A DNA stretch of 64,000 nt from Escherichia coli (GTDB taxonomy: Bacteria > Pseudomonadota > Gammaproteobacteria > Enterobacterales > Enterobacteriaceae), in NCBI RefSeq assembly GCF_030013205.1, contig NZ_CP122648.1; one strand, 5' to 3'. Under the pieces are notes generated by a model. The model made no database searches and was not told the origin of the DNA. It worked only from the letters and a program-made list of their open reading frames with translations. Positions 50,323 to 50,628 of this stretch are shown one piece after another. How positions within the stretch are numbered: the stretch's first letter is position 1; each line of letters starts with the position of its first letter. The translations under genes and the position numbers were made by a program.

Positions 50323-50628
50323 TCAACCTGCGGTTTTACCGCCGGAAAGGGTGTGAAAACGTTTTGGACGCTTGATACGCGTCATATACTTGGACCACAC
50401 GCGTTCTGCTTCTGTCACTGGCTCACGTTCGCCACGGCATACTGCTACGAAGAGTTTCTCTTCCTCGGTAACCGGCTCGCGTTTGCCAAGATCCAACTCA
50501 TTGAAGGCATAACCATGACGCTCAAGCAGTTGTGCCTCTTTGATGGTGAAATCACCATGACGAGAGAATCCACGTGGATAATGTTTATTGTCGAAATATC
50601 GATTAGTCGTCGTAAAGCTTTCCGCCAT
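50323..50628 (-). CDS. yifE: UPF0438-family protein YifE, apparently truncated at the C-terminus
   Basis: 101-aa [24 protein letters not shown]...; the next frame continues [14 protein letters not shown] to a stop at 50281-50283, consistent with a 1-nt change in an A-run. Confidence 0.8.

Follow-up and report, generated by a model that had tools for sequence, protein, structure and literature searches.

The maoP locus and its neighbourhood

The stretch of Escherichia coli DNA analysed here (64,000 nucleotides, referred to throughout as the window) carries on its minus strand the gene yifE, for which the RefSeq name is maoP (Table 1). In E. coli K-12, MaoP (YifE, DUF413/UPF0438) is the trans-acting factor of the MaoP/maoS Ori-macrodomain system (Valens et al. 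2016, PMC5023128), and maoS is the 17-bp cis site through which it acts (PMC5023128). The locus in the window is arranged as in K-12, with hdfR divergent from maoP, yifB convergent with it, and an exact, intact copy of maoS in the intergenic region between maoP and hdfR. The family profiles gave a match over the whole domain: the full DUF413 domain is still contained in the 101-residue ORF (Pfam PF04219, residues 10-97, E = 1.7e-38), scoring 130.9 bits compared with 130.4 bits for the 112-residue form (cutoff 25), and the 101-residue protein scored 222.9 bits with the NCBIfam equivalog NF008251 (cutoff 181). The gene is therefore assigned as maoP, and it is an ordinary, well-known gene.

The original prediction for this locus was that a change of one nucleotide in a homopolymer cuts yifE short, and this was confirmed. 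Relative to essentially every other E. coli, the window has one additional A in a run of three (the A3 allele), giving a run of four (A4) at exactly the minus-strand position that had been predicted, and the ORF has the ...GGKTAG-stop ending that had been read from it. The product is identical to K-12 MaoP over residues 1-98 but stops 11 residues sooner, with Thr-Ala-Gly replacing the 14-residue acidic tail. The codons of the normal tail are still present one frame over and are also identical to those of K-12; read from 50336, this alternative frame gives a 15-residue C-terminal stretch followed by two stops. Removing one A from the run restores the normal 112-residue MaoP, i.e. the usual E. 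coli product (WP_000841001.1), so the expectation that a one-nucleotide shift would give the usual C-terminus was correct.

The restored stop, however, is not at 50281-50283 as had been proposed. It is the TAA listed in Table 1, which is directly followed by a second TAA at 50286-50288, and positions 50281-50283 fall within a hairpin (AAAAAGGGCGAAAUGCCCUUUUUU) directly 3' of the restored stop. A terminator had been expected at this point; the hairpin found there has a folding energy of -11.5 kcal/mol (z = -3.0), although a simple consensus terminator scan missed it, and it is probably a bidirectional intrinsic terminator shared by maoP and yifB. The A/T run of this shared hairpin at 50264-50269 is six bases long in the porcine lineage and seven in K-12-like and other lineages.

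Table 1. Positions of the features of the maoP locus in the window.
Feature	Position	Strand	Description and basis
Truncated maoP (yifE) ORF	50323..50628	-	101 aa, ends ...GGKTAG*, TGA at 50323-50325; ORF list
A4 run (T4 on the + strand)	50334..50337	-	A3 in essentially all other E. coli; +1 frameshift after Lys98
Out-of-frame remainder of maoP	50289..50333	-	14 tail codons and normal TAA stop (50289-50291); translation, sequence coordinates
Hairpin with flanking A and T runs	50264..50287	.	Between convergent maoP and yifB; RNA fold
maoS (CTAATACTCCGCGCCAT)	50663..50679	-	17-bp cis site, intact; one exact match in the window; sequence from PMC5023128
hdfR	50747..51586	+	Divergent from maoP over a 118-bp intergenic region; ORF list, RefSeq annotation of NZ_CP122643.1
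yifB C-terminal fragment (comM-like Mg-chelatase ATPase)	48901..50265	+	Convergent with maoP; RefSeq 'incomplete; missing N-terminus'; alignment with island-free ETEC4071
Island in yifB	34204..48916		14.7 kb; alignment with island-free ETEC4071

The yifB stop codon is at 50263-50265, and the gene is split upstream by the island, which has an imperfect 16-bp direct repeat on either side, ATTATCAATAGCGGAT (34188-34203) and ATTATAAATAGCGGAT (48901-48916). The frameshift had been thought to lie about 60 bp from the island junction, but the right junction is at 48901-48916, ~1.4 kb from the frameshift site, and it is the end of yifB that lies 58 nt away. Nothing ties the island to the frameshift, because the island-free strains ETEC4070 and ETEC6333 carry A4 too.

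A tyrosine integrase (about 34380-35609) lies at the left end of the island, whose cargo includes an Icd-like protein, a RepA-type helicase, ProQ/FinO, PerC, NUDIX and DUF2213 proteins and a 679-residue lytic transglycosylase. The same island is present at the same site in ETEC4079 and in JAUAMS010000015.1, and related islands are found at other loci in many porcine strains. A second yifB lesion, an 89-bp deletion corresponding to approximately 49580-49666 of the window, is common to ETEC6333, ETEC6334, ETEC1701 and the O139:H1 strains W13-16 and P15-25; this deletion is a real lineage marker, which inactivates yifB without the island.

Comparison of near-identical genomes

When the window was aligned with RefSeq NZ_CP122643.1, the record of E. 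coli ETEC4079 (isolated from pig faeces in Belgium), a single base differed in 64,000. Positions 1-24000 are identical, and positions 24000-64000 contain no substitution and one gap, which is in the T/A run of maoP; the gene is intact in ETEC4079 as deposited. Over 12.5 kb, JAUAMS010000015.1 differs from the window at that same base only, where it has A3, and it encodes the 112-residue protein.

Two further pairs of genomes were discordant at this run. Over 50 kb around the locus, ETEC4071 and ETEC4070 showed no substitutions and two indels, one in the maoP run and the other in an A8/A7 run (window 51646-51653); over 50 kb elsewhere they showed neither substitutions nor indels. ETEC6334 and ETEC6333 showed no substitutions over 50 kb and one indel, again in the maoP run. 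The clone-mates ETEC4071 and ETEC6334 both have A3, and the chromosomes differ in length by 5 bp within each of these two ETEC pairs. There are therefore three near-identical genome pairs that disagree at the maoP run, and they represent different clones, the yifB island being present in one, the 89-bp yifB deletion in another and neither in the last. It follows that a real mutation would need at least three independent origins, i.e. the same insertion in an A3 run, at the same position, each time splitting clone-mates that have no accompanying substitution in 50-64 kb. This pattern would be very hard to obtain by mutation, and we infer that the flip between clone-mates is a base-calling artefact instead.

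The A8 run lies between hdfR and tRNA-Trp; it has seven bases in ETEC4070 and ETEC6333 and eight in ETEC4071 and ETEC4079, and is a further homopolymer at which clone-mates disagree, 1.3 kb from the maoP run. Relative to ETEC4071 there is one substitution in 34 kb, in ilvD (28671-30521). The ilvD product is WP_282842974.1 in ETEC4079 and WP_001127394.1 in ETEC4070, ETEC4071, ETEC6333 and ETEC6334; the 616-residue product encoded in the window occurs on only five contigs of the public assembly collection, one of which, JAUAMS010000015.1, matches the window at every base of the 3.9 kb retrieved around ilvD.

Distribution of the A4 allele

A 371-nt query over maoP found matches in 5,425 of the 5,426 complete E. 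coli RefSeq genomes, with 371/371 identity in only two. With a 62-nt query centred on the run, A4 was likewise found in two of the 5,425 genomes, the exact allele being absent from the other 5,423; in all 38 non-carriers listed for this query the match was one base shorter. The carriers are ETEC4070 (NZ_CP122676.1) and ETEC6333 (NZ_CP122600.1), in both of which PGAP labels maoP a 'frameshifted' pseudogene. These pseudogenes have the allele of the window (371/371) and come from the same lineage and the same nanopore-only project; unlike the window, neither strain has the yifB island, and ETEC6333 has the 89-bp yifB deletion instead. Other strains sharing the short C-terminus had been named as grounds for doubting a truncation. 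Such strains exist, in the form of these two RefSeq genomes, but both belong to a single nanopore-only project and are contradicted by their own clone-mates. Genomes of the same lineage from other laboratories (K_EC180, CFSAN018748, EC556/571/581, W13-16 and P15-25) have A3, and a scan of metagenome contigs gave 25 matches to the A3 pattern and none to the A4 pattern.

At the protein level, the exact 101-residue sequence was present on only three contigs in a collection of ~15 billion proteins, and two of the three carry further one-base indels close by. The NCTC contig UGEM01000004.1 differs from its nearest complete genome, over 3.3 kb, by three one-base insertions and by no substitution; one of these insertions falls within maoS (CTAATTACTCC...) and another in yifB, and they are likely to be local insertion errors. 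A Logan contig from SRR15827889, which is K-12-like, has the extra A, a C5 to C4 change in yifB and a single substitution over 2.5 kb. The remaining contig (SRR15828000) shares an accession range with SRR15827889 but belongs to a different lineage. Two other aberrant forms of MaoP are present in public protein sets, one of 97 residues that is frameshifted at the CCAAAACG run and one of 125 residues whose reading frame runs on through the terminator; this small gene is a recurrent site of homopolymer frameshifts in the databases.

One way in which clone-mates could come to differ is a hypervariable switch between tailed and tailless MaoP, through either a programmed +1/-1 frameshift or slip-strand phase variation. 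Toggling in three independent pairs, with the surrounding 50-64 kb otherwise invariant, fits such a switch. However, runs known to slip at appreciable rates are far longer than three or four bases, just two run lengths were observed, and the shifted frame is conserved nowhere; moreover A4 was in none of the 25 metagenome contigs, and in the 5,423 genomes that lack the exact allele it would have shown as a 100% match. We rejected a slip-strand phase-variable locus on the basis that there is no long homopolymer or repeat (the run is 3-4 bases, A4 is in 2/5,425 genomes, and the listed non-carriers differ by a single-base gap), and a programmed ribosomal frameshift on the basis that relatives encode MaoP in one frame and the two-frame arrangement is not conserved. 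A switch is therefore exceedingly improbable as an explanation. The wider proposal, that A3/A4 is a genuine recurrent hot spot in the porcine ETEC lineage which switches between tailed and tailless MaoP and so alters Ori-macrodomain organisation between otherwise identical clone-mates, is very unlikely.

Sequencing provenance of the carrier genomes

ETEC_4079, ETEC_4070 and ETEC_6333 are included in Supplementary Table S1 of Vereecke et al. 2023 (PMC10151945, PRJNA917806), and the chromosome lengths in that table (5,181,067, 5,067,014 and 5,142,642, respectively) are the same as those in RefSeq. The genomes were sequenced with nanopore reads only, using R9.4.1 flow cells and the rapid barcoding kit (PMC10151945). 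Base-calling was with Bonito 0.4.0, followed by Trycycler consensus and polishing with medaka 1.5.0, and there was no short-read polishing (PMC10151945). The window probably derives from this project or from a sister assembly.

The A4 allele occurs only in unpolished long-read assemblies, and clone-mates free of substitutions disagree in whether they have it. Residual homopolymer indels occur in long-read-only bacterial assemblies (consensus errors of ONT R9.4.1 and PacBio RS II), and the maoP discordance resembles them in being a single-base change in run length, in separating clone-mates without substitutions and in being accompanied by the A8/A7 discordance. We consider it probable, with a likelihood of about 0.85, that the extra A is a recurrent nanopore consensus or assembly error and not a real mutation. 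This reading of the sequence comparisons is favoured because (i) A4 flips between clone-mates without accompanying SNPs, (ii) all assemblies with A4 are unpolished long-read ones, and independent genomes of the lineage lack it, and (iii) a second run-length discordance co-occurs 1.3 kb away. In this mechanism the three-base run would be called as four where the call of the base-caller or polisher is borderline, and the extra base would be a residual error of nanopore-only assembly. The original prediction had left the choice between a genuine variant and a sequencing error open; that either/or holds, and the evidence points to sequencing error.

Several observations count against a consensus error. 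The runs in which nanopore homopolymer errors and other failures of long-read consensus usually occur are longer than three to four bases, and recurrence at exactly the same site also sets the maoP change apart from them. We found no cause of a site-specific miscall at the run, and inspection by eye showed no Dam, Dcm or EcoKI methylation motif there. A 5-bp inverted repeat (GCGGT/ACCGC) surrounds the run, and we make no link between it and a mechanism of either error or mutation. Consensus accuracy on a control strain is also reported as ~Q50 (PMC10151945), and we found no accessible public record that combines the yifB island with A4.

The lack of such an island-bearing record also bears on whether the base was changed after assembly, either by other processing of the ETEC4079 assembly or by an edit in the copy that gave the window; the fact that the window differs from the deposited ETEC4079 sequence at the maoP run only is in keeping with this. 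However, the probability that a random change would hit on the allele of two sister assemblies is negligible, and a sibling or alternative nanopore consensus is a simpler source of the base. We therefore regard a change after assembly as highly improbable.

The acidic C-terminal tail and the possibility of a genuine mutation

We considered what a real frameshift would remove from the protein. The frameshift follows Lys98 and so lies outside the Pfam domain. An AlphaFold2 model built with 69 homologues showed a confident three-helix core with pLDDT above 86 to approximately residue 90, whereas confidence in the tail (residues 91-112) was low, at pLDDT 56-64. A real frameshift would keep the DUF413 core (residues 10-97) and lose only the disordered acidic tail. 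A sequence search found no solved structure for the DUF413/MaoP family. Among 106 family representatives, the tail that follows the core has a median length of 18 residues and is net acidic in ~90%, and only 1% have three residues or fewer; the tail is conserved in kind and not in sequence. Because its kind is conserved across the 106 representatives, the tail probably has a function, and a MaoP without it would be unusual in the family.

If the additional A were real in the isolate, the cell would have a MaoP with an intact DUF413 core and Thr-Ala-Gly in place of the 14-residue acidic tail, and its function could be lost in part or altogether, possibly through selection in culture. The deposited genomes of two further isolates of the lineage (ETEC4070 and ETEC6333) have A4 too, and the 101-residue protein still scores above the NCBIfam equivalog cutoff. 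Disruption of maoP has also been repeatedly enriched in laboratory evolution: IS2 insertions in the gene expand in morbidostat cultures (PMC8209735), and in the K-12 laboratory strain HMS174 (NZ_LM993812.1) maoP is interrupted by an IS5 element. Together, these insertions suggest that loss of maoP is tolerated or favoured in the laboratory, and this selectability counts against a consensus error as well as in favour of a mutation.

However, if loss of function were selected, a variety of lesions (IS insertions, other frameshifts) would be expected and not one base at one site; in addition, the insertion would have had to arise at least three times, as described above. Every carrier comes from an unpolished nanopore assembly, and genomes of the lineage that are not nanopore-only have A3. 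The retention of an acidic tail by ~90% of the family representatives also argues for selection on the tail. A genuine mutation is therefore unlikely, and we retain it as an alternative because inactivation of maoP is selectable in laboratory culture.

Consequences for maoP

Our preferred explanation, a consensus error, matters for curation, as an intact and conserved chromosome-organisation gene is read as a pseudogene on account of one base. Two RefSeq records already annotate maoP as a pseudogene from a single base in unpolished nanopore assemblies, and the maoP run makes a handy marker of a consensus error that recurs with that pipeline. If, as is most likely, the extra A is not in the DNA of the organism, the cell would make the normal 112-residue MaoP, which would act with the intact adjoining maoS. 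If the frameshift were instead true, the isolate would carry a natural tail-less allele of maoP, and this would provide a way to ask what the conserved acidic tail does.
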